Source: Isurus oxyrinchus (lineage: Eukaryota). From it: a DNA stretch of 64,000 nt. Each line of letters begins with the position of its first letter. The stretch's first letter is position 1. The stretch lies in contig JANJGN010000013.1 of assembly GCA_026770705.1 (NCBI GenBank), positions 5,022,001-5,086,000 of the forward strand, read 5' to 3'. Position numbers and translations under genes: made by a program. Shown here piece by piece: positions 6,925-61,735 of the stretch. The notes beneath the pieces were generated by a model, which made no database searches, was not told the DNA's origin, and saw nothing but the letters and a program-made list of their open reading frames with translations.

Positions 6925-6963
6925 AGTTAACGTTTCGAGTCTGTACGACTCTTAATCAGAACT
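6925..6963 (-). ncRNA. Minimal type I hammerhead ribozyme motif (G8 mutated)
   Basis: The minus strand reads agtt-CTGATTA-a-gagtc-gtaca-gactc-GAAA-cgTT-aact. Confidence 0.6.
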
Positions 6964-7210
6964 AAAGAGGAATAAAAATGTGGTGAAATATAAGCTGTTT
7001 AAGGTGGGGGGGACAGGTGGAGCTGGATAGAGGGCCAGTGATAGGTGGAGGCAAAGGAGAGATTGCCAAAGAAATTGTCAACATCCCTTTGTCTATGACA
7101 TCTTTGGCAATCTCTTCTTTGCCTCCACCTAACACTGGCCCTCTATCCAGCTCCACCTGTCCCACCCCCCCTTAAACAGCTTATATTTCACCACATTTTT
7201 ATTCCTCTTT

Positions 7211-7248
7211 ACTTCTGAAGAAGAGTCATACGGACTTGAAATGTTAAC
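7211..7248 (+). ncRNA. Minimal type I hammerhead ribozyme motif (canonical CUGANGA)
   Basis: The sequence reads CTGAAGA-a-gagtc-atacg-gactt-GAAA-tgTT-aac. Confidence 0.7.
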
Positions 7249-7393
7249 GCTGTCTTCCTCTCCACGGATGCTGTCAGACATGCTGAGTTTTTCCAGCGAT
7301 TTTTGTTTTTGTATAAAATTTAGACTGTTTTCTTTCTCTGTCTCTTCCATCCCATTTCTTTTTCAGCCACACCTTTTGCCATTTCTGTCAACG

Positions 7394-20430: not shown

Positions 20431-21966
20431 TTAGTTACCACAGATCACAACCAGAGTGTTTCGTTTGATGGAGTGATAAGAGCCAATGTGGGTAATTACA
20501 GTCTTTGATCCGTAATGCCATCCTGCACCTGAATAAGGCCTCTTGATGATACTACAAATCTGCAACTCCATTAATGTCACTAACAATGACTTTATACTCA
20601 CCCGTTCCCGTTGAATAAAATTCAGTGGATGATCCATCTCAGTCTCCTTCTGAGGTCCACAATATCATAGATGTCTGCAGTCAATTTTGTTCACTTCACA
20701 TGACATCAAAAAATAGTTTACTACACTGGATACAGCAAAGGCTATAGAACCCAACAATATCTGGCCGTACTGCTGAACACCTGTGCTCCAGAACTAACCA
20801 CACCTCTTGCCAAGCTGTCCCAGTGCGACTACTGGCACCTACCCAACAAATGGAAAACTGCCCAGGTATACCCTATTCACAAAAAGCAGGACAAGTCGGT
20901 TAAGGCCAACTACCACCATGTCAGCATACTCTCAAAGGTCAACAAAGTGGTGCACGGTGTCATCGACAGGACTATTAGATGGCAATTACTCATGATGCTC
21001 AATTTGGATTTTTCCAGCACTTCTCAGCTTCAGAACCCATTGCAAACTTGATCTAAACAAGGAGAAAAGAGCTGAATTCCAGAGGTTAGCTGAGAATGAC
21101 TGCCCTTGCCATCACAATGGTTTTTTTGACCAAATGTGGCACCAAGGAGTACTAGTAAAACTGAATTCAGTGGGAATCGGGGGAAAAACTCTCCATTAGA
21201 TGAAGTCATACCTAGCACAAAGGGGATGATTGTGGTTGATGGACACCAACCATGTCAGCTTCAGGGCACCAGTGCAGGAGTTCCCTAGGCCAGTGTCTGA
21301 GGCTCAACCATCTTAAGCTACTTCATCAATGAACTTTCCTCCATCATTACATCAGAAGTGGGAATGTTCGCTGATGATTGCACAGTGTTCAGTATCATTC
21401 ATAATTCTATGGATAATGAAGTAGTCTGTGCTCACAAGCAAGATCTGGTCAACATCAAGGCTTGGGCTGATAAATAACAAGTAACATTTGTGCCACATTT
21501 GGCAAACAAAGATGCTTTCTCGTTGGAGATGATCAAAGAATCTCCCCTTGAACTTCAACAGCACTACCATTGCCAAATCCACACCATCAACATCCTGGGT
21601 GGGGGGATGGTTTCCATTGACCAGAAACTGTACCAAGCACATAAACACAGTTGTTATAAAGGCAGATCAGAGGTTGCATATTTTGTGGTGTGACTCACCT
21701 CTGAACACTCCAAAGCTTTTTCACTACCTACAAAACACAAGGCAGACGTCTGATAGAAAACATTGCACCTGTCTGGATAAGTTCAGCTCGAGCAGCTGGC
21801 TTGACTGGCACACTACCTACCACCTTAAGCATTCACTCCCTCCCACAATGTTGTACCAACTACAATATGCAGCAAATTGTCAAGCCTTCCTCAACAGCAC
21901 CTCGCAAACCTGTGACTTCTACCACCAAGACAGACAAGGTCAGTAGGCACAAAGGAACAGTACCTC

Positions 21967-22728
21967 GTTGCTCCCAATGTGATCTCCTCTACATTGGAGA
22001 GACCAAACGTAAACTGGGCGACCGCTTTGCAGAACACCTGCGGTCTGTCCGCAAGAATGACCCAAACCTCCCTGTCGCTTGCCATTTTAACACTCCACCC
22101 TGCTCTCTTGCCCACATGTCTGTCCTTGGCTTGCTGCATTGTTCCAGTGAAGCCCAACGCAAACTGGAGGAACAACACCTCATCTTCCGACTAGGCACCT
22201 TACAGCCTTCCGGTCTGAATATTGAATTCAACAACTTTAGGTCGTGAGCTCCCTCCCCCATCCCCACCCCCTTTCTGCTTCCCCCTTTTCCCCCTTTTTT
22301 TTTCCCTATAAATTATATAGATTTTTCTTTTCCCACCTATTTCCATTATTTTTAAATATTTTAAAATCTTTTATGCTCCCCCCATCCCCACTAGAGCTGT
22401 ACCTTGAGCGCCCTACCATCCATTCTTAATTAGCACATCCGTTTAGATAATATCACCAACTTTAACTTTAACACCTATGTGTTCTTTTGTACCATTGTCA
22501 CTGACATCTTTTGATGATCTGCTTGTTTGTCTACACAACCCACCTCTCTCTCTCTATCTCTCTGCCCCCCCACACACACACCTTAAACCAGCTTATATTT
22601 CAACTCTTTCTTGGACTCGAAATCAAGTTCTGTCGAAGGGTCAGGAGGACTCGAAACGTCAACTCTTTTCTTCTCCACCGATGCTGCCAGACCTGCTGAG
22701 TTTTTCCAGGTAATTCTGTTTTTGTTTT
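21967..22728 (+). mobile_element. 5'-truncated young Neptune PLE (GIY-YIG C-part, 3' UTR, hammerhead)
   Basis: It encodes RCSQCDLLYIGETKR...GLNIEFNNFRS* (to 22247) and is near-identical to 40253-41016. There is an exact 12-bp TSD, gaacagtacctc, at 21955-21966 and 22729-22740. Confidence 0.93.
22626..22664 (+). ncRNA. Minimal hammerhead motif, variant core CUGUCGA
   Basis: The sequence reads agtt-CTGTCGA-a-gggtc-aggag-gactc-GAAA-cGTC-aact. Confidence 0.7.
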
Positions 22729-23064
22729 GAACAGTACCTCCAAGTTCACTCCAAATCACATCAGTCTGACTAGGACACATATTGTCATTCCCACATTGTC
22801 AATTGGTCAAAATCCTGGAACTTCCTATCTAATAGCTGTGGGGGAGGACCTTCACCACACGGACTGCAGTGGTTCAAGAAGGTACCACCTTCTCAAGGGT
22901 AATTAGGAATGGGTAATAAATGTTCGATTTGCCTGCATCTTGAGAATTAATAGATACATTTTTAAAAAATGACAGCATATTCTATGTTGCTTTCACCAAC
23001 ATACACACCAGCATTACATTTGTGATATTTGCCAGACGACTATTCCAGAATTCTCATGGCCAGC

Positions 23065-28085: not shown

Positions 28086-28541
28086 GAAAGGGAATAAGTC
28101 CAAGTTCACCAAAGAATTGAGTACTTGCAGTCCCTTTGCCTTATAAAATATATCCTAATTCCCCATGTTGTATGAAAAGCAGAGATGAAAATCTAACTTA
28201 TCTTACTAATTGTCATGTTTAAGGGGAAGCTAGCCACATACAGGAGAGGAAAAGAATAGGATATGTTGATAGGCTGAGACCCTCACACCTCCCTGACTAA
28301 AACCTCAAACTTGTGCTGGGGCAGAAGCAGCCAGTGATTATTAGAAGGTTTGGTCAAGGCCAATCACCACTCTCACTTAACAGATACCATTTTTTTAAGC
28401 TGAGGTCTGCAGATAACAATTAAGAATAAAAAACTTTTCAAATGTATTTTTCTTGCTGATCTTTACGGGTTAAGATAAAAATCAAATTCTAGGGTAAATT
28501 GTTGCTGATTTGGCTGAGATTAACTAATAGCATAGAACAGG

Positions 28542-28640
28542 TTCTGTCGAAGGGTCATGAGGACTCAAAACGTCAACTCTTTCCTTCTCCGCCGATGCTG
28601 CCAGACCTGCTGAGTTTTTCCAGGTAATTCTGTTTTTGTT
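28542..28640 (+). mobile_element. 99-bp PLE mini-insertion: hammerhead motif plus 3' terminus (young family)
   Basis: It is near-identical to 40916-41014. There is an exact 14-bp TSD, tagcatagaacagg, at 28528-28541 and 28641-28654. The GAAA is mutated to AAAA. Confidence 0.92.
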
Positions 28641-28681
28641 TAGCATAGAACAGGGGTTGGCTTAATTGGACCTAATCTTAA

Positions 28682-32473: not shown

Positions 32474-34109
32474 AGGTTAAGGGAAATCGGAAGGTAAGGG
32501 GCTGTGACTTCTCATGTAGGTCATGGTCAGGTGATGCCTCAACTGCCATTTATTAATCAAGGTAATGCTCAATATCAACAATGTAAGAGGTCCTGCTTCA
32601 TACTCCAGTCTCAATTGCTATTCACACTTCCAAAGATCAAGCTGCACAATGCTTAACTGTGGGGAAAACAGGCAAATCTGACCTACTGGTCAAGCACATC
32701 TCCTTCAGAATCAACTAAGGAGTCGCACAGAGACAATGGAGAATTTTCAGGCTCCCTCTCCATCCTTTCAGGCAGCAGGATGGATTTAAGGGAGGTGGAA
32801 GAGAGGGAGTCTCTTTCAATAACTCAGTACAATAACTTATCCTGAAAATGGAGCAAATTAGTTTTCATTGCAAAGACAATTGTTAAAAATAAAAGTTATA
32901 CTGTTGACAGATGAAAAGCTTTTTTTTCAAAAAATCTTTACTGTTTAATTGGAATTGAAATGTTTTCTCCTTTAAGTTAGCTCACTGTCACTTACTGTCA
33001 TCACCTTTTTGAGCAGTTTTTACTGTTCTTTCAGGAAATATAAGTGATACATTTGACTGGACATTCAATGTGGTTGAGATTCTAGACATGAAGTGCATTG
33101 GGAATGACATCATCCAGTCCAATTACTGTACCTCACCTAACTGAAATAAGTCACCAAAAAACCTCGTTACACTTCATGTTTTGGCTAATTTGACAGCCAG
33201 ATTGTCTGTAAAACAATCATATAACCTTTTCACGACCAAATTTATCTGTCAGTTTCACATGAGAAACATGCTTTTTGTGCAACATCTACAAAAGTGGCAG
33301 TGAAGACAATGGTAGAACGCAGAAGACATAATTTTTCAAGAGGTGAGCTTCTGATTTCAGTCAGAGCAAGGTGCAGCCCACAGACAGGTTTGAGGCAGAG
33401 GAGATATTCAATGACCACTCAATGGCATTGACAGAGGGGTCAACAAGACAGCTAGAATAATAAAAAAAACTTTTAAAAATATGGTCTAAATGCTGTGTTG
33501 GAGCTCAGGGTTAATGATCCACATGGTAATTCATGAACTATCTACAATATCAACAGATCAGCACACAAAATAGTTAAAACACTTTTAATGCTGTATATAT
33601 AATCACAAATTATAAATTGAGAGAATGAACTCTTTAATTGCTTTCTAGACTTGAATTCCTTTCTTACTGCACTATTCATTAATGTTATGACTTACGCAAA
33701 TAAGACAAAGCCATGCATGGTCAAAAATGCTGTACAATTTCCACACCCAGTTTTACTTTTGGTTTAAAATGTAGTTGCTTATCTCAGTAATCCCGTGACT
33801 GATGGCTTGTTGCTATATGCCATTGGTTAATTACACCATCATGGTTCTATGGCAGTTGTCTGATTCACAATGGTGGGAGGTAACAGGCAACTCAGCAAAA
33901 GCTTATTCAGTGTCATTGATATTAAAGTAGGGAAGCTCAGCTCCAGCATTAACAAGTATTTCAGCAAAGACCAAATCTAGTTTTTCTGCCCCAGTTTGCC
34001 AAGCTCAACAAAGAGGAATTTTGATGGAGGGAAATTTTATAAAGCTCATTGCAGACATTATTAAGGGTTGCTTTGAAGATTCAATGGACAAACACTCTGT
34101 AGTGTGGTA

Positions 34110-34338
34110 AAAACAAAAAACTGCGGATGCTGGAAATCCAAAACAAAAACAGAATTACCTGGAAAAACTCAGCAGGTCTGGCAGCATCGGCGGAGAAGAA
34201 AAGAGTTAACGTTTCGAGTCCTCATGACCCTTCGACAGAACAGTTCTGTCGAAGGGTCATGAGGACTCGAAACGTCAACTCTTTTCTTCTCCGCCGATGC
34301 TGCCAGACCTGCTGAGTTTTTCCAGGTAATTCTGTTTT
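34110..34338. mobile_element. 229-bp near-perfect palindromic PLE mini-element (young family)
   Basis: The 96-bp arms (34146-34241 and 34243-34338) have 1 mismatch and a 1-nt spacer. A 36-bp tail (34110-34145) is present on one side only. There is an exact 16-bp TSD, actctgtagtgtggta, at 34094-34109 and 34339-34354. Confidence 0.95.
34204..34280. ncRNA. Back-to-back hammerhead motifs, one per strand (CUGUCGA core)
   Basis: The minus motif at 34204-34241 ends GAAAcGTT. The plus motif at 34242-34280 ends GAAAcGTC. Confidence 0.7.
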
Positions 34339-34904: not shown

Positions 34905-35858
34905 ATATATATATATATAAATGACTTAGGTGAGGGAAGTGAATATACTTCTAAGTTTGCGGATGACACAAAAATAGGTTGGAAGGCAAGTGGTGAGGAT
35001 GACACAAGGAGTCTACAGAAGGATATAGACAGGTTAAGTGAGTGGTCTAAACCTTGCAAGATGGAATATAATGTGGGGAAATGTATGTTATACACTTTGG
35101 AAGGAAGAAAAGAGGCTGAATATTACTTAAATGGAGAAAGACTGCACAGAAGAATTTGGGAGTCCTTGTGCAAGAATCCCAAAAAGCTAACATACAAGTT
35201 TATCAGGTAATAGGGAAGGCAAATGGAATGTTGGCCTTTATTTCAAAGGGAATGGAGTATAAAAATAGGGAAGTGTTGCTAAAACTGTACAAGTGTGACT
35301 AGTTAGACCACACCTAGAATAATGTGAACAATTTTGGTCCCCTTATCTTATACTGGCATTGCAGGCAGTCCAGAGAAGGTTCACAAGTGTTGATCCTGGG
35401 TACGGAGGGATTTTCTTATGAGGAGAGTTGAGTAAGTTGGGCCTGTACTCATTGGAATTTAGAAGAATGAGAGGCAACCTTATTGAAACATATAAGATTC
35501 TTAGGGCACTTGACAGGGTAGATGCTGTGAGGTTGTTCCCACTTATGGGAGAGTCTAGGACCAGAGGGCATAATCTCTGAGTAAAAGGGTGCCCATTTAA
35601 AACAGAGATAAGGAAGAATTTCTCCTCTCAGAGGGTAGTCAATTTGTGGAATTCTTTACCACAGAGTGATGTAGAGGCTGGGTCGTTAAGTATATTCAAG
35701 GCTGAGATAGACAGATTTTTAATCAATAAGGGAATCAAAGGTTATGGGGAAAATGCAGGAAAGTGGAGTTGAAGATTATCAGATCAGTCATGATCTCATT
35801 GAATGGCGGAGCAGATTCGATGGGCCGAATGGCCTACTTCCGCTCCTACGTCTTATGG
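34905..35858 (+). mobile_element. 5'-truncated CR1 LINE
   Basis: It contains aagtttgcggatgacacaaaaatagg (KFADDTKIG) through the 3' UTR. A (TA)n expansion sits at the 5' edge. Confidence 0.9.
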
Positions 35859-37726: not shown

Positions 37727-37794
37727 ATGTAAAACAAAAACAGAATTACCTGGAAAAACTCAGCAGGTCTGGCAGCATCGGCGGAGAAGAAAAG

Positions 37795-37833
37795 AGTTGA
37801 CGTTTCGAGTCCTCATGACCCTTCGACAGAACT
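37795..37833 (-). ncRNA. Minimal hammerhead motif, variant core CUGUCGA
   Basis: It is the exact reverse complement of 40914-40952. Confidence 0.72.
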
Positions 37834-38225
37834 TGAGTTCGAGTCCAAGAAAGAGTTGAAATATAAGCTGGTTTAAGGTGTGTGTGTGGGGGGGCGGAGA
37901 GATAGAGAGAGAGAGAGGTGCTTGTGTAGACAAGCAAGCAGTGATAGAAGCAGATCATCAAAAGATGTCAGTGACAATGGTACAAAAGAACACATAGGTG
38001 TTAAAGTTAAAGTTGGTGATATTATCTAAACGAATGTGCTAATTAAGAATGGATGGTAGGGCACTCAAGGTACAGCTCTAGTGGGGGTGGGGGGAGCATA
38101 AAAGATTTTAAAATATTTAAAAATAATGGAAATAGGTGGGAAAAGAAAAATCTATAAAATTTATAGGGAAAAAAAAGGGAAAAAGGGGGAAACAGAAAGG
38201 GGGTGGGGATGGGGGAGGGAGCTCA

Positions 38226-40053
38226 CTACCTAAAGTTGTTGAATTCAATATTCAGACCGGAAGGCTGTAAGGTGCCTAGTCGGAAGATGAGGTGTTGTTC
38301 CTCCAGTTTGCGTTGGGCTTCACTGGAACAATGCAGCAAGCCAAGGACAGACATGTGGGCAAGAGAGCAGGGTGGAGTGTTAAAATGGCAAGCGACAGGG
38401 AGGTTTGGGTCATTCTTGCGGACAGACCGCAGGTGTTCTGCAAAGCGGTCGCCCAGTTTACGTTTGGTCTCTCCAATGTAGAGGAGACCACATTGGGAGC
38501 AACGAATGCAGTAGACTAAGTTGGGGGAAATGCAAGTGAAATGCTGCTTCACTTGAAAGGAATGTTTGGGCCCTTGGATGGTGAGGAGAGAGGAAGTGAA
38601 GGGGCAGGTGTTACATCTTTTGCGTGGGCATGGGGTGGTGCCATAGGAGGGGGTTGAGGAGTAGGGGGTGATGGAGGAGTGGACCAGGGTGCCCCGGAGG
38701 GAGCGATCCCTACGGAATGCTGATAAGGGGGGTGAAGGGAAGATGTGTTTGGTGGTGGCATCATGCTGGAGTTGGCGGAAATGGCGGAGGATGATCCTTT
38801 GAATGCGGAGGCTGGTGGGGTGATAAGTGAGGACAAGGGGGACCCTATCATGTTTCTGGGAGGGAGGAGAAGGCGTGAGGGCGGATGCGCGGGAGATGGA
38901 CACAGTTGAGGGCCCTGTCAACGACCGTCGGTGGAAAACCTCGGTTAAGGAAGAAGGAGGACATGTCAGAGGAACCGTTTTTGAAGGTAGCATCATCGGA
39001 ACAGATGCGGCGAAGGAACTGGGAGAATGGGATGGAGTCCTTACAGGAAGCGGGGTGTGAGGAGCTGTAGTCGAGGTAGCTGTGGGAGTCGGTGGGTTTG
39101 AAATGGATATTGGTGGACAGTCTATCACCAGAGATTGAGACAGAGAGGTCAAGGAAGGGAAGGGAATTGTCACAGATGGACCACGTGAAAATGATGGAGG
39201 GGTGGAGATTGGAAGCAAAATTAATAAATTTTTCCAAGTCCCGACGAGAGCATGAAGCGGCACCGAAGTAATCATCGATGTACCGGAGAAAAAGTTGTGG
39301 AAGGGGGCCGGAGTAGGACTGCAACAAGGAACGTTCCACATACCCCATAAAGAGACAGGCATAGCTGGGGCCCATGCGGGTACCCATAGCCACACCTTTT
39401 ATTTGGAGAAAGTGAGAGGAGTTGAAGGAGAAATTGTTCAACGTGAGAACAAGTTCAGCCAGACGGAGGAGAGTAGTGGTGGATGGGGGTTGTTCGGGCC
39501 TCTGTTCGAGGAAGAAGCTAAGGGCCCTCAGACCATCCTGGTGGGGGATGGAGGTGTAGAGAGATTGGACGTCCATGGTGAAGAGGAAGCGGTTGGAGCC
39601 AGGGAACTGGAAATTGTTGATGTGACGTAAGGTGTCAGAGGAATCACGGTTGTAGGTGGGAAGGGACTGGACAAGGGGAGAGAGAAGGGAGTCAAGATAA
39701 CGAGAAATGAGTTCTGTGGGGCAGGAGCAAGCTGAGATGATCGGTCTACCGGGGCAGTTCTGTTTGTGGATTTTGGGTAGGAGATAGAAGCGGGCCGTCC
39801 GAGGTTGGGCGACTATCAGGTTGGAAGCTGTGGGAGGGAGATCCCCAGAGGAGATGAGGTCAGTGACAGTCCTGGAAACAATGGCTTGATGTTCAGTGGT
39901 GGGGTCATGGTCCAGGGAGAGGTAGGAGCAAGTGTCTGCGAGTTGACGCTCAGCCTCCGCGAGGTAGAGGTCAGTGCGCCAGACAACAACAGCACCACCC
40001 TTGTCAGCGGGTTTGATGACAATGTCAGGGTTGGACCTGAGAGAATGGATCGC
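38226..40053 (-). pseudogene. PLE polyprotein remnant: reverse transcriptase + Cys-rich linker + GIY-YIG endonuclease, with one frameshift near 38905
   Basis: ORF 38848-40077 has KPADKGG, YLLPKIHK, MDVQSLYTSIP, GVAMGTRMGPSYA, RYIDD and PFLD. ORF 38226-39395 continues with PCPRKRCNTC, NLVYCIRCSQCGLLYIGET and GLN. The N-terminus is missing. Confidence 0.93.
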
Positions 40054-40533
40054 TCCCTCTGGGACACCCTGGTCCACTCCTCCATCACCCCCTACTCCTC
40101 AACCCCCTCCTATGGCACCACCCCATGCCCACGCAAAAGATGTAACACCTGCCCCTTCACTTCCTCTCTCCTCACCGTCCAAGAGCCCAAACACTCCTTT
40201 CAAGTGAAGCAGCATTTCACTTGCATTTCCCCCAACTTAGTCTACTGCATTCGTTGCTCCCAATGTGGTCTCCTCTACATTGGAGAGACCAAACGTAAAC
40301 TGGGCGACCGCTTTGCAGAACACCTGCGGTCTGTCCGCAAGAATGACCCAAACCTCCCTGTCGCTTGCCATTTTAACACTCCACCCTGCTCTCTTGCCCA
40401 CATGTCTGTCCTTGGCTTGCTGCATTGTTCCAGTGAAGCCCAACGCAAACTGGAGGAACAACACCTCATCTTCCAACTAGGCACCTTACAGCCTTCCGGA
40501 CTGAATATTGAATTCAACAACTTTAGGTCGTGA
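40047..40533 (+). pseudogene. Inverted second copy of the PLE linker and GIY-YIG domain (open frame, no native start)
   Basis: The C-terminal part of ORF 39805-40533 reads DRSLWDTLVHS...LVYCIRC..CGLLYIGET...NNFRS*. Confidence 0.9.
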
Positions 40534-40913
40534 GCTCCCTCCCCCATCCCCACCCCATTTCTGTTTCCCCCTTTCTTTTTTTTCCAATAAATTATATAGA
40601 TTTTTCTTTTCCCACCTATTTCCATTATTTTTAAATATTTTAAAATCTTTTATGCTCTCCCCACCCCCATTAGAGCTATACCTTGAGTGCCCTACCATCC
40701 ATTCTTAATTAGCACATTCGTTTAGATAATATCACCAACTTTAACACCTATGTGTTCTATTGTACCATTGTCGCTGACATCTTTTGATGATCTGCTTCTA
40801 TCACTGCTTGTTTGTCCACACAACCACACCCCCCACCTCTCTCTCTATCTCTCCGCCCCCCACACACACCTTAAACCAGCTTATATTTCAACTCTTTCTT
40901 GGACTCGAACTCA

Positions 40914-40952
40914 AGTTCTGTCGAAGGGTCATGAGGACTCGAAACGTCAACT
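40914..40952 (+). ncRNA. Minimal type I hammerhead motif, variant core CUGUCGA
   Basis: Stem I is agtt/aact and the core is CTGTCGA plus an extra A. Stem II is gggtc/gactc, followed by GAAA and a loopless palindromic stem III (ACGT). The GUC triplet predicts cleavage after 40948. Confidence 0.72.
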
Positions 40953-41723
40953 CTTTTCTTCTCCGCCGATGCTGCCAGACCTGCTGAGTTTTTCCAGGTA
41001 ATTCTGTTTTTGTTTTGGATTTCCAGCATCCGCAGTTTTTTTGTTTTATAAAATGGCAAGGGTTCATCAAGCATGACCGACTGTCCAACACAGCCACTTG
41101 TGATTTAGAAACCAGCCACATGAACATGGGTCTTGCACAGTGTAAAAGTAAAGACTTAACTGAGTTGGCTTGATCAATTCTAGCTGAACTCTATCTAAAG
41201 GTGCACTTAGAGTGGTACTTATTTAATTAAGATCACAAAAAGCAGTACGTATGTCAAAAAAATGCTGCACTCATTGCAGAATCTAGCATGACAGCACAAC
41301 ATCAGTTAGTATTTCATGACATAAAACTGCCTCACAACAAGTGTTAGTTGTTTTACTGCTTATCACATTTATGTAGACGGGTTCTCATGGCTCTGAGTTG
41401 CTTTCAGGCCAGTCTGAAGTAGGAGCCCAATGTTTCTAATCAAACTATTCTTAAACACAAAAGGACAGACCCTGCCAGTATATCATGAAAGATTTAGCAT
41501 GTAAGGCAAGTACATACTTCCACACCTCACAACTGGAAATGGTTTCTGCAAGTTTGCTGTTTATCATTATGAAATGGGTGAGGGTATGGGTGTACTTTGA
41601 GTAAAAAGTACTCCTGAACTTATTCTCCTGTCATGAGCATTTCAATCTGACTTTTTCTCAAAAGCTGGCAAATGGGCCTATCCAAAAAGATTGGCTTCTT
41701 AGAGAGTTTTTAATGATTTTTAA

Positions 41724-54185: not shown

Positions 54186-57094
54186 GACTAGAAAGTTGGG
54201 GGGGAGGGAAGGGTAAAACTCCAAGAAGTATGACTAATGGGAAACAAAGCAGCAGGTTAGCATGTGTGGGGGGGGGGGTGGATTCAACTTCATGGAAAAT
54301 TATGAAAAAACTGAAAAGAAAGGAGAGCCCAGGAGAGGCTATTAAAGTCTCCAGAACACAAAATAGGACAGAGTGTTTGGAAAGGGCTAGGAATCTAACT
54401 TCAAGCACATCAGATAAAGGGACGACAATGAGAAAGGCGACGGGAAATACAGGACTGAAGGTGTTGTATCTGAATGCACGCAGTATACAAAATAAGGTAA
54501 ATGAGCTTGTGGCACAGAATGAAATTGGCAGCTATGATGTGGAGGGCATCACGGAGACATGGCTGCAAGGGGATCAGGACCGGGAGCTAATATCCAAGGA
54601 TATACATCCTATCGAAAAGATAGGCAGGTTGGCAGAGGGAGTGGGGTTGCTTTGTTCATAAGAAATGAAATTAAATCGATAGCAAGAAATGACGTAGGGT
54701 TAGATGATGTAGAATCTGTGCGGGTAGAGTTGAGGAACCGCAAAGGTAAAAAAACCATAATGGAAGTTATGTACAGGCCTCCGAACAGTAGTCAGGATGT
54801 GGGGCACAAAATACACCAGGAGATAGAAAAGGTGTGTAAGAAAGGCAAGGTTACAGTGATCATGGGGGATTTCATTATGCAGATAGACTGGGAAAGTCAG
54901 GTTGATAGTGGATCCCAAGAAAAGGAATTTGTGGAATGTCTATGAGATGGCTTTTTTGAGCAGCTTGTGATGCAGCCTACTAGGGAACAGGCAATTCTAG
55001 ATTTAGTGATGTGTAATGAGGCAGATTTGATAAGGGAGCTTAAGGTGAAGGAACCCTTAGGAGGAAGTGACCATAATATAATAGAATTTACCCTGCAATT
55101 TGAGAAGAAAAAGCTGGAATCAGATGTAACGGTATTACAGGTGAATAAAGGCCACTACAGAGGCATGAGGGAGGAACTGGCCAGAATTGACTGGGAGATG
55201 AGCCTTGCAGGAAAGACAGTGGAACAGCAATGGCAGGAGTTTCTGGGAGTAATTTGGGAGACACAGCAAAAATTCATCCCTAGGAAGAAGCATACTAAAG
55301 GGAGGAGGAGGCAACCATGGTTGACAAGGGAAGTCAGGGACAGCATAAAAACTAAAGAGAAAACATACAATGGCGGAGGAACTGAATAGGTACTTTGCGC
55401 CAGTCTTCATGGTGGAAGACACAAGTAACATCCCCAAAGTTCAAGAGAGTAGGGGGGCAGAGGTGAGTATGGTGGCCTTAACCAAGGACAAGGTGCTAGG
55501 AAAACTGAAAGGTCTGAAGGTGGATAAATCACCTGGACCAGATGGATTACACCCCAAAGTTCTGAAGGAGATAGCTGAAGCGATAGTGGAGGCATTTGTG
55601 GTGATCTTTCAGGAATCACTCGAGTCAGGGAGGGTCCCAGAGGACTAGAAAATCACTAATGTAACCCCCCTGTTTAAGAAGGTAGTGAGGCAAAAGGGAA
55701 ATTACAGGCCGATTAGCCTGACCTCGGTCGTTGGTAAGATTTTAGAGTCCATTATTAAGGATGAGATTTCAGAATACTTGGAAGTGCATGGTAAAATAGG
55801 GCAAAGTCAGCATGGTTTCATCAAGGGGAGGTCATGCCTGACAAATCTGTTACAATTCTTTGAGGGGATAACGAGTAGATTAGACAAAGGAGAGCCAATG
55901 GATGTTATCTACTTGGACTTCCAGAAGGCCTTTGACAAGGTGCCGCACAGGAGGCTGCTCAGTAAAGATAAGAGCCCATGGTGTTAGAGGCAAGGTACTA
56001 GCATGGATAGAAGATTGTCTGTCTGGCAAGAGGCAAAGAGTGGGGATAAGGGGGTCCTTCTCAGGATGGTGGCCGGTGACTAGTGGAGTTCCGCAGGGGT
56101 CAGTGTTGGGACCACAACTTTTCACTTTATACATTAATGATCTAGATGAAGGAGCTGAGGGCACCCTGGCTAAGTTTGCAGATGATACAAAGATAGGTGG
56201 AGGGACAGATAGTATTGAGGAGGTGGGGAGGCTGCAGAAGGATTTGGACAGGTTGGAGAATGGGCAAAGAAGTGGCAGATGGAATGCAATGTGGGTAAGT
56301 GTGATGTCATGCACTTTGGTAGGAAGAATAGAGGCATAGACTATTTTCTAAATGGGGAGAGAATTCAGAAATCTGGAGTGCAAAGGGACTTGGGAGTCCT
56401 AGTCCAGGATTCTCTTAAGGTTAACTTGCAGGTTGAGTCAGTAGTTAGGAAGGCAAATGCAATGTTGGCATTTATTTCAAGAAGACTAGAATATAAAAGG
56501 GATGTGCTGCTGAGGCTTTATAAGGCTCTGGTCAGACCACATTTAGAATATTCTGAGCAATTTTGGGCCCCGTATCTCAGGAAGGAGGTTCTGGCCTTGG
56601 AGAGGGTCCAGAGGAGGTTCACGAGAACGATCCCAGGCATGAAAGGCTTAACATATGAGGAACGTTTGAGGACTCTGGGTCTATACTCGATGGAGTTTAG
56701 AAGGATGAGGGGGGGATCTGATTGAAGCTTACAGAATATTGAAAGGCCCGGATAGAGTGGACGTGGGGAAGATGTTTCCATTAGTAGAAGAGGCTAGGAC
56801 CTGAGGGCACAGCCTCAGAGTGAAGGGAAGACCTTTTAGAATAGAGATGAGGAGAAACTTCTTTACCCAGAGACTGGTGAATCTACAGAATTCATAGCCA
56901 CAGAAGGCTGTGGAGGCCAGATCATTGAGTGTATTTAAGACTGAGATAGATAGGTTCTTGATTGGTAAGGGGATCAAAGGTTACGGGGAGAAGGTGGGCG
57001 AATGGGGTTGAGAAACTTATCAGCCATGATTGAATGGTGGAGCAGACTCGATGGGCCGAAGGGCCTAATTTCTGCTCCTATGTCTTATGGTCTT
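54186..57094 (+). mobile_element. Long 5'-truncated CR1 LINE: APE endonuclease + RT pseudogene + 3' UTR
   Basis: Several frames contain YLNARSI, GITETWL, YRPPN, MGDF, LDLV, SDHN, GPDG, NYRPISLTS, DFQKAFDKV, GVPQGSVLGP and FADDTK. The tail is (gtcttatg)n. A possible 7-bp TSD, aagaata, lies at 54179-54185 and 57095-57101. Confidence 0.95.
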
Positions 57095-57237
57095 AAGAAT
57101 AAGATAAGCACCATGTAGTTAAGTATAAGTATTTCACTTTTTTGTACAGTTGAGTACAAATGAGCTTCATATAACTGTTGTTATATTTGCTCTTTTTGTT
57201 TGAAAGTACAATTCTCGGTTTAAAACATCAAAATATA

Positions 57238-57816
57238 GGTTACAAGGCACTAGTTAAACCAAACCTAGAATACTGTGAACAAGTTTGGTCCCCTTATCTA
57301 AGGAAAGATACACTGGCATTGCAGGCAGTTCAGAGAAGGTTCACTAGGTTGATCCCAGGTATGAAGGGATTTTCTTATGAGGAGAGGTTGAGTAGGTTGG
57401 GCCTGTATTCATTGGAATTCAGAAGAATGCGAGGTGACCTTACTGAAACATAAGATTCTTCGGGGGCCTGACAGGATAGATGCTGAGAGGTTGTTTTCCA
57501 TAGTGGGAGAGTCTAGGACCAGAGGGCAGAATCTCAGAGTAAGGGGTCGCCCATTTAAGGCAGAGATGAGGAGGAATTTCTTCTCTCAGAGGGTAATCAA
57601 TCTGAGGAATTCTTTACCGCAGAGGGCGAATGAGACTGGATCGTTAAGTATAATCAAGGCTGAGATAGACAGATTTTTAATCAGTAAGGGGATCAAGGAT
57701 TATGGGGAAAAGGCAGGAAAGTGGAGTTGAGGATTATCAGATCAGCCATGATCTCATTGATTGGCAGAGCAGACTCAATGGGCTGAATGGCCAACTTATG
57801 CTTCTACGTCTTATGC
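57238..57816 (+). mobile_element. CR1 3' fragment (same subfamily as 34905)
   Basis: It encodes YKALVKPNLEYCEQVWSP...RRMRGDL, followed by the 3' UTR. Confidence 0.9.
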
Positions 57817-58877: not shown

Positions 58878-59088
58878 AAAGCAAAATACTGCGGACGCTG
58901 GAAACCTGAAACAAAAACAGAAAATGCTGGAAAAGCTCAGGTCTAACAACATCTGTGGCGAGAAAGACAGAGTTAATGTTTCCAGTCCGTATGACTCTTC
59001 TTCAGTCTGGAGACTCTGAGACAGACTCAAAATGTTAACTCTGTCTTTCTCTCCACAGATGTTGTTAGACCTGCTGAGCTTTTCCAAC
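58878..59088. mobile_element. Fold-back PLE mini-element (older family)
   Basis: The left arm tgctggaaaagctcag...agaaagacagagttaa is inverted relative to ttaactctgtctttct...ctgagcttttccaaca. The minus strand has CTGAAGA-a-gagtc-atacg-gactg-GAAA. The tail is on one side only. Confidence 0.85.
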
Positions 59089-59454: not shown

Positions 59455-60120
59455 ACTGTGGTGTATAGAAGATTGACTGGCTGGCAGAAAACAGAGAGTA
59501 TGCATAAACGGGTCTTTACAAAAGGAACTGAACATAAAAGTAAGGATGTTATGCATCAGTTATACAAGGCATTGGTGAGACCACATCTCGAATACTTTTG
59601 ATAGTTTTGATCTCCTTATTTAAGGAAGGATGGAAATGCATTGGAGGCAGTTCAGAAGAGGTTTATTAGATTGATACCTGGAATGAGGAAAGGTTGGACA
59701 GACTGGGCTTGTTTCCACTGGAGTTTAGAAGAGTGAGGGGTGATTTGATTGAAGTATACAAGATCCTGAATGGTCTTGACAAGGTGGATGTGGAAAGGAT
59801 GTTTCCTTTTGCGGGTAAGTCCAGAACTAGGGGGCACTGTTTTAAAATTAGGTGTCGCCCTTTTAGAACAGAGATGAGGAGAATTTTTTTCTCTCAGAGG
59901 GTTGTGAGACTTTAGAACTCTCTGCCTCAGAAGGCAGAGCCATTGAATATTTTTAAGGCAGAGGTAGTTAGATTCTTATTAAGCAAGGAAATCAAAGGTT
60001 ATCGGGATAGATGGGAATGTGGAATTCAAAACACAAACAGATCAGCCATGATCTTATTGAATGGCAGAGCAGGCTCGAGGGGTCAAATGGCCTACTCCTG
60101 ATCCTATTTCTTATGTTCTT
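59455..60120 (+). mobile_element. CR1 3' fragment with internal deletions
   Basis: ORF 59694-59915 (DRLGLFPLEFRRVRGDLIEVYKIL) is followed by the 3' UTR. Confidence 0.88.
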
Positions 60121-60850: not shown

Positions 60851-61735
60851 ATTCATTCATGGGATGTGGGTTTTGCTGGCTGGGCCAGCATTAATTGCCC
60901 ATCCCTGTTTGCCCTTGAGAAGGTGGTGGTGAGCTGCCTTCTTGAACCACTGCAGTCCATGTGGTGTAGGTACACCCACAGTGCTGTTAAGAAGGGAATT
61001 CTAGGATTTTGACTTAGCGACAGTGAAGGAATGACGATATACTTCCAAATCAGGATGGTGAGTGGCTTGGAGGGGAATCTATCTGATGCCCTTGTCCTTC
61101 TAGGTGATAGTGGTCGTGGGTTTGGATGGTGCTCTCCAAGGAGCCTTGGTGAATTCCTGCAGTGCAGCTTGTAGATGGTACATGTTGCTGCTAATGTGCA
61201 GCAGGGGTGGAGGGAGTGAATGTTTGTGGATGTGGTGCCAATCAAGCGGGCTGCTTTGTCCTGGATGGTGTCCAGCTTCTTGAGTGTTGTGCGAGCTGCA
61301 CTCATCCAGGCAAGTGGGGAGTATTCCATCACACTCCTGACTTGTGCCTTGTAGATGGTGGGCAGGCTTTGGGGAGTTAATGAGGTGAGTTATTTGTCGC
61401 ACGATTCCTAGCCTCTGACCTGCTCTTGTAGCCACAGTATTTATATGGCTAGTCCAGTTCAATTTCTGGTTGATGGTAACCCCCTAGGATGTTGATAGTG
61501 GGGGATTCAGTGATGGTAATGCCATTGAACATCAAAGGGCAATGGTTGGATTGTCTCTTGCTGGGGATTGTCATTCCCTGGCACTTGTGTGGCATGAATG
61601 TTACTTGCCACTTGTTAGCCCAAGCCTGGATATTGTCCAGGTCTTGCTGCATTTGGACATGGACCGCTTCAGTATCTGGGGAGTCCCGAATGGTGAACAT
61701 TGTGCAATCATCAGCGAACATCCCCACATATGACA
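60851..61735 (-). mobile_element. Family-B LINE 3' portion (RT FADD motif to 3' end)
   Basis: The ORFs contain MFADDCTMF...QQDLDNIQAWANKWQVTF, WTSHINTVATRAGQRLG and MEYSPLAW...KKLDTIQDKAARLI. Confidence 0.9.

Follow-up and report, generated by a model that had tools for sequence, protein, structure and literature searches.

A putative hammerhead with U at core position 6 in an abundant Penelope-like element of Isurus oxyrinchus

The minimal type I hammerhead motif of a Penelope-like element (PLE) in Isurus oxyrinchus has U in place of A at core position 6, and this variant was carried by the active masters of the element. The 4.98-Gb genome was searched with an exact 28-mer, position 6 or 7 being varied while the rest of the 28-mer was fixed. 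The search yielded 65,012 copies with U6 and C7 and a further 20,222 with U6 and another base at position 7 (91 U, 8 G, and 1 A in the first 100 of the 20,222). These are 85,234 exact U6 copies in total, as against 171 exact copies with A6 and any base 7 in the same 28-mer context. Among copies with C7, 369 had a base other than U at position 6, and C was commoner in them than A and G; A6 is thus at the level of mutation background. The reversed-pattern control of the genome search gave 0 matches versus 65,012. An earlier note on this DNA had proposed a genome-wide count of U6 versus A6 and had placed the substitution in the active master element; the count agrees with that proposal. One further combination, C6-U7, is represented by 1,761 copies, about one-tenth of the U6-U7 number. 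Its loci share common upstream haplotypes which, together with this number, indicate that C6-U7 came from its own master or masters.

A literature search found no natural U6 hammerhead, no U6 core fixed in a retroelement lineage, and no measurement of A6U in a hammerhead, the set of Lunse et al. 2017 being beyond its reach. It found no report of a PLE that combines shark and Neptune either. The prior natural loss of position 6 that it retrieved is a single phage A6C ribozyme.

The motif and its copies in the window

The window is the whole analysed stretch of 64,000 nucleotides of contig JANJGN010000013.1. The motif studied here is composed as follows.

40914..40952, + strand: minimal type I hammerhead motif in the terminal repeat of a PLE
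40914-17/40949-52, + strand: stem I (AGUU/AACU)
40918 to 40924, + strand: core, C3 to A9 (C3 U4 G5 U6 C7 G8 A9), with U6 at 40921
40925, + strand: extra A between core and stem II
40926-30/40936-40, + strand: stem II, 5 bp with one G-U pair and a 5-nt loop
40941-44, + strand: GAAA
40944-47, + strand: loopless stem III, ACGU
40948, + strand: C17, which closes the GUC site

The element that bears this motif and the other copies in the window occupy the following positions.

6925..7249, both strands: older inverted pair with A6 cores, 6925-6963 (-) and 7211-7249 (+)
21965..22729, + strand: 5'-truncated young copy with U6 motif 22626-22664
28540..28646, + strand: short young copy that begins at the motif 5' edge; G12>A
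34108..34338, both strands: head-to-head pair of short young copies, motifs 34204-34242 (-) and 34242-34280 (+), inverted at the motif 5' edge
37731..40098, - strand: partner unit with frameshifted RT and GIY-YIG, 3' UTR, U6 motif 37795-37833, and tail
40047..40533, + strand: C-terminal part of the ORF (Cys-rich linker and GIY-YIG) in the 5'-truncated, inverted unit bearing the 40914 motif
40534..40913, + strand: 3' UTR, at whose end lie a short repeat of GACTCGAA from the motif (40902-40909) and the stem I AG
40953..41048, + strand: tail 3' of the motif
58971..59009, - strand: older, decayed A6-A7 motif with an inverted partner

The pattern CTGTCGA-A-GGGTC-5 nt-GACTC, which the earlier note had read in six young motifs, was present in all six at the places given there (C3 at 22630+, 28544+, 34246+, 40918+, 37829-, and 34238- in the alignment). 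Five of them continue with GAAACGT(C/T), as had been noted, the exception being the 28540 copy with its G12>A change. In the two older copies (7215+ and 59005-), the CTGAAGA core had been described correctly, but a stem II 3' strand GACTC that stays paired had not: the 3' strands are GACTT (wobble) at 7215+ and GACTG at 59005-, where the mismatch at 10.1-11.1 means that the stem does not stay paired.

A minimal-hammerhead descriptor with positions 6 and 7 left free gave 5 matches in the window versus 0 in each of 100 Markov-resampled windows, so the motifs of the window are not chance occurrences. A similar descriptor applied to 1.87 Mb matched this PLE lineage only. The search of the window against Rfam at E<=5 returned 17 matches, none of which was a hammerhead. 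The motif displays the features of PLE minimal hammerheads, namely a three-way architecture, stems I and II, an extra base 9/10.1, a palindromic 15.2-16.2, and an NUH site. According to the exact-copy counts in the genome, it lacks the A6 of the canonical CUGANGA core. As anticipated in the earlier note, searches that require CUGANGA miss it, the core being CTGTCGA. In the unbiased 1.2-Mb sample (see below), C3, U4, G5, G8, A9, G12, A13, A14, and A15.1-U16.1 were each kept in 46-48 of 48 U6/C6 copies, a count whose selection needed 4/5 matches at -2..+2 and therefore favours C3-G5. Judged by its sequence, the motif is a putative descendant of the PLE minimal hammerheads that would work like them, while lacking A6.

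Two other kinds of repeat were observed in the window. Inverted PLE pairs at 6986-7188, 34146-34338, and 58949-59062 form long perfect hairpins with sub-threshold Rfam microRNA matches, and are possible sources of double-stranded RNA. Other LINE-like fragments, with endonuclease- or RT-like peptides and repeated 3' ends, are located at 54538-57815, 59563-60115, 35298-35857, and 60853-61487.

The element and the order of its subfamilies

The PLE identity claimed in the earlier note was borne out by RT and GIY-YIG fragments in the window, which form an inverted pair upstream of the motif, and by full-length open frames elsewhere. An open frame of 925-926 codons lies between two U6 motifs about 3.3 kb apart in three (L161, L163, and L169) of 10 fetched stretches, which had been chosen around close-lying motifs. 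Full-length copies with an open 918-aa RT/GIY-YIG frame thus have the motif at both ends, and their ORF begins about 170 nt past C3. The 918-aa protein (P0001) matched RVT_1 with E 3e-6 and GIY-YIG with E 0.002, the latter below the curated cut-off but with the motif and the CCHH residues visible. The 120 homologues listed for it were unnamed or uncharacterized proteins, and the nearest one from a named source is that of a bamboo shark, with 68% identity over 65% of the length. The C-X4-C-X2-C linker before the endonuclease conforms to CX2-5CxxC, and a linker of this kind between RT and EN is the Neptune/Nematis layout (PMC8557442; here and below, articles with PMC numbers are cited for their accessible parts). 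By this linker layout, as read from the predicted protein, the element is a Neptune-type PLE. Other characters of EN+ PLEs were found as well: a single ORF with RT plus a GIY-YIG endonuclease at its C-terminal end, partial tandems (pLTRs), inverted 5'-truncated partners, and an optional tail of 30-40 nt. Copies of the family terminate at two T-rich places, ~65-70 and ~100-105 nt past C17 and thus ~35 nt apart, which by analogy with PMC11167929 are likely to be the PLE tail with two RT start sites.

Several further observations concern the element itself. At L161:1711-8404 (G000:C1:462210-468903), two tandem units, 3353 and 3340 nt long and framed by three U6 motifs, are one substitution apart, while another full copy has 93 differences; this fits either copying of one RNA over more than a unit, through a circle or by template jumps, or local duplication at a later time. 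Several copies have an open frame of 286 codons in a different reading frame (L161:3450-4310, L161:6804-7664, L163:3327-4187, L167, and L169); it overlies the RT-thumb/linker region and may reflect C/T-rich composition only. A tail block of ~32 nt (window 40969-41000) is near-identical from the oldest A6 family to the young family and is a candidate RT-binding structure. In the youngest subfamilies, 9-10 nt of the motif, GGACTCGAA(A), are repeated directly upstream of stem I (window 40901-40913 and 22613-22625), where older subfamilies have a pyrimidine tract; this copy could pair with the stem II 5' strand or mark a template jump.

The element was present in RNA contigs of four organisms (assembled contigs only). 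In the contigs of other species, the 40 difference rows listed out of 82 include no change at position 6; in organism D, the motif is spanned by one contig, whose two differences apparently lie outside position 6. Half of the element's sampled words occurred in the coral-metagenome RNA run X14, likely as stray fish material, and a metagenome scan gave 0 matches.

An unbiased sample of 120 stretches of 10 kb at round coordinates (1.2 Mb), together with the window, contained 60 whole motifs: 31 U6-C7, 15 U6-U7, 8 A6-U7, 4 A6-A7, 1 U6-G7, and 1 C6-U7. When ranked by tail distance, these motifs grade from A6-A7 and A6-U7 into U6-U7 and U6-C7. The older loop context gave 6,575 matches, the first 100 of which comprised, by hand count, 57 U6-U7, 23 A6-U7, 17 A6-A7, and 3 others, with the same stem II and loop on either side of the A6 to U6 change. 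In a still older family with stem II AGGUC/GACCU, A6 was found in 85 of the first 100 of 144 matches (hand count), which identifies A6 as ancestral. The tree built from the 62-nt tail alone clusters the labels with no resolution of the branching, and the subfamily order A6 > U6-U7 > U6-C7 rests on diagnostic columns. Over 147 ORF bases, the oldest U6 copies diverge from each other by 6-8% and the young ones by 2-3%. Read from these sequences, U6 predates the young family. The earlier note had treated U6 as a trait of the young family; it is present there but is not exclusive to it. U6 originated earlier, in a CUGAUGA context, and was handed down through several subfamilies, one of which has C6.

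The families also permit a check of stem covariation, the absence of which the earlier note would have counted against a ribozyme. Two of the five stem II pairs have changed on both sides across families with all cells paired, these double-sided changes emerging from the comparison with the AGGUC/GACCU family, although the rows are related and the stem II changes therefore represent few events. No covariation across families was found in stem I.

Constraint on the motif and ends of inserted copies

Constraint after the loss of A6 was estimated from column majorities in 7 mid-age U6-U7 copies (3-7 per column) versus 4 young copies. Four of the 8 free positions have changed (N7, two loop II bases, and H17, which went from U to C and is still H), as against 1 of 18 stem positions (where an A-U pair became G-U and remains paired) and 0 of 12 other invariant positions. 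The contrast between free and all constrained positions (1/30 changed) gives a Fisher p=0.004, and that between free positions and the 12 invariants p=0.014, which implies that the fold has been maintained. When only the unpaired core is considered (4/8 versus 0/8, p=0.077), constraint is only suggestive at this level of sequence comparison. Background changes amount to 6/46 at third codon positions (13%), 52/287 in the 3' UTR (18%), 4/16 directly after the motif (25%), and 39% directly before it. At these rates, zero changes have a probability of 0.10-0.33 for 8 positions and 0.03-0.19 for 12 positions, while 1 change in 30 constrained positions has a probability of 0.002-0.08. The pattern suggests retained catalysis in the U6 lineage. 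The tail block +51..+99, however, is as conserved as the motif (2/49 changed, 4%), so something else may be preserving the entire region. Position 6 itself changed again, U>C, in the C6 side branch, which is to be expected if this base no longer matters.

The same figures bear on the view that hammerheads are passengers of PLEs and that A6U was the first hit, with too little time for more. The masters have diverged by only ~13-18% at weakly constrained sites since U6 arose, Naiads attain high copy numbers although they lack canonical hammerheads, and the authors of the same study raise the idea that hammerheads parasitise PLEs (PMC8557442). We regard such a neutral relic as unlikely given the rarity of change at the 30 constrained positions, the sole change being one that keeps its pair.

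The ends of inserted copies were surveyed in the 1.2-Mb sample. Of 54 young copies, 32 have their 5' end within -12..+10 of C3, 15 extend beyond 40 nt upstream of C3, and none starts within +26..+33, cut RNA being expected to begin at +31. Older copies also end inside the motif. Since no sampled copy starts at the cut site and copies run through into the tail, the inserted copies were made from RNA that was uncut there. These ends concern copied RNAs, and RNAs that were never copied may still be cut. The earlier note had pointed to RNA ends after 40948; genomic copies gave no sign of cleavage at this place.

In the genome-wide matches, purine-preceded starts exactly at the cut product were estimated at ~240 (16/30 loci read, of 448 matches), and those at four neighbouring positions at ~64 (7/30 of 273), ~70 (6/20 of 234), ~119 (7/20 of 341), and ~131 (4/20 of 653). 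A cleavage footprint was nevertheless rejected: 9 of 16 junctions share letters with the flank or inverted arm according to a script, and two more do so by eye. With most +31 junctions ambiguous, the excess at the cut site was not accepted. Starts at the cut site make up <1% of copies in any case.

These ends are well accommodated if the motif has been catalytically dead since the loss of A6 and is kept as a structural or protein-binding part of the terminal repeat together with the conserved tail, for example as a site where reverse transcription stops or switches template. Such a role would agree with the clustering of starts at the motif in young and older copies, with the equal conservation of the tail, with a constraint that is clearer in the stems than in the core, and with hammerhead knock-outs that leave PLE insertion in vitro unchanged (PMC11167929). 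A pure secondary-structure constraint does not predict, however, that the unpaired core remained unchanged while loop II, N7, and H17 changed, or that H17 remained U or C. We consider this possibility a substantial one, though second to a retained ribozyme. The pile-up of starts lies beyond the structure in the direction of reverse transcription; a structural stall would account for this less well than an RNA 5' end located a short way upstream of stem I.

Older copies (L098:8610-8645, L066:9766-9800 minus, and others) have a pyrimidine tract that ends in TTAG or CCAG at the stem I AG and resembles a splice acceptor and also an initiator. In D. virilis, an intron ends at the same place, the stem I AG (PMC4209133, PMC2377424). 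No GT-AG joint at the stem I AG was present among 15 of 16 joints from four RNA runs, and no common upstream exon among 28 foreign junctions of 165 copies; splicing at this site is not supported.

Expected activity and biological meaning

The PLE-linked hammerheads with short stem III of Lunse, Weinberg and Breaker 2017, which the present motif resembles in both respects, are described in a review (PMC6765202) and reportedly cleave as dimers. Among the metazoan minimal PLE hammerheads of Cervera and De la Pena 2014, A6 occurs in every row of the Fig. S3 alignment of 56 motifs, the descriptor requires A6, and U3-A8 is the only core change reported in the accessible text (PMC4209133). The motif shares with them the type I architecture, a location in both terminal repeats ~3.3 kb apart, an extra base between 9 and 10.1, G10.1-C11.1, a palindromic 15.2-16.2 without loop 3, a short stem I, a U-rich 5' flank, and solo and inverted copies; it differs in the replacement of A6 by U (or C) in the dominant lineage. 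A natural pyrimidine at position 6 is otherwise known from the phage Bcep176 A6C hammerhead, and the C6-U7 side branch has the CUGCUGA core tested in that work (PMC3088659, PMC7151607). In contrast to the single phage sequence, however, the lineage described here has more than 85,000 copies, is dominated by U6 instead of C6, and carries a loopless, dimer-dependent motif known from sequence alone. In the Poseidon element PAc of Anolis, 3' ends likewise fall at two places downstream of the hammerhead, the copies derive from uncut RNA, and no ends were seen at the cut site, although its hammerhead cuts; it needs the PLE protein to do so, and insertion draws mainly on uncut RNA (PMC11167929). The ORF of PAc starts in stem II, unlike the ORF with a Cys-rich linker ~170 nt past C3 in our element, and no position-6 change is mentioned in the accessible part of that source.

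The natural phage A6C hammerhead cleaves at <0.1/min (PMC3088659). A6C shifts the preferred metal to Mn2+, in which rates of 0.18-0.31/min were obtained; a mouse-gut ribozyme with A6C reached 3.55e-6/min in 0.3 mM Mg2+, and a >10,000-fold gap for this metal preference was reported in a second ribozyme (PMC7151607). The A6C cores on record are slow in Mg2+. Loss of position 6 is thus not necessarily lethal to the motif. A comprehensive mutational scan showed low activity for every mutant of the CUGA turn apart from the C3-G8 swap (PMC9901934). Among minimal PLE hammerheads, monomers show no activity and dimers little (PMC4209133); these motifs being slow already, the addition of U6 may mean no cutting. 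By analogy with these ribozymes, the U6 motif is likely to cut far slower than normal, if at all.

Folds were predicted for natural copies. With C7 and C17, A6 gives a perfect 5-bp rod extension of -11.3 kcal/mol, which U6 breaks (-7.3 kcal/mol). Older natural copies with A6-U7 or U6-U7 give similar values (-8.2, -8.3, and -6.8). In stability, monomer folds do not exceed those of shuffled sequences. A further idea, namely that an inactive rod is stabilised by U6, was dropped after the folding of natural copies. The earlier note had offered the U6A revertant as a refuting test; this is unsafe, since a young-background A6 copy has a predicted rod 4 kcal/mol more stable than that of U6, which makes the revertant a poor control.

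The weaker misfold of U6 once C7 and C17 are present and the shift of A6C to Mn2+ would both accord with a U6 core that is fully competent under the right conditions, for instance with Mn2+ or in the presence of the element's protein, and that C7 and C17 tuned later. We consider this highly improbable: U6 arose before C7 and C17, the older copies fold near-equally, no compensating base is visible, and fast cutting would remove the tail that is present in inserted copies.

The explanation that we place first, tentatively and with slightly less than even confidence, is read from the sequences as a ribozyme that is crippled yet retained, and tolerated since the template is uncut RNA; it ranks ahead of a dead structural element, a neutral relic, and a fully active variant. 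The motif would be the terminal-repeat hammerhead of an autonomous PLE whose master lineage swapped A6 for U and kept multiplying. It would likely still fold and cut after C17, only slowly, as a two-copy (dimer) ribozyme and probably with the aid of the element's protein. Slow cutting could be tolerated or even useful, since cutting of the 3' copy would remove the tail where reverse transcription begins and cutting of the 5' copy would remove an RNA leader. Residual cutting might trim read-through transcripts or make circles, and would explain why the other core bases have been kept.

A bolder and improbable extension is that the lineage gained by detuning its hammerhead, with the mostly uncut motif and tail serving as a terminal redundancy for strong-stop-like transfer. 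Reverse transcription would be primed at the tail copy in the 5' UTR, run to the RNA end just upstream of stem I, and then either jump to the 3' copy, giving long and tandem copies, or abort, giving the ~60% of copies that start at the motif 5' edge. Such a step would be comparable to retroviral strong-stop transfer, and the U6 core would still permit rare cuts gated by protein or metal.

The role of PLE hammerheads is an open question in the accessible parts of PMC4209133, PMC8557442, and PMC11167929. Here, an autonomous lineage altered a core base deemed important in mutational studies and then reached its present copy number, so that the family is a natural test of whether PLEs need to cut their own RNA. 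The A6 ancestors and the C6 and G7 side branches in the same genome constitute a ready assay series. Should U6 cut, natural hammerheads have a wider core than descriptors admit, and large sets of motifs are being missed; otherwise, PLEs are able to thrive with no cleavage and still keep the fold.
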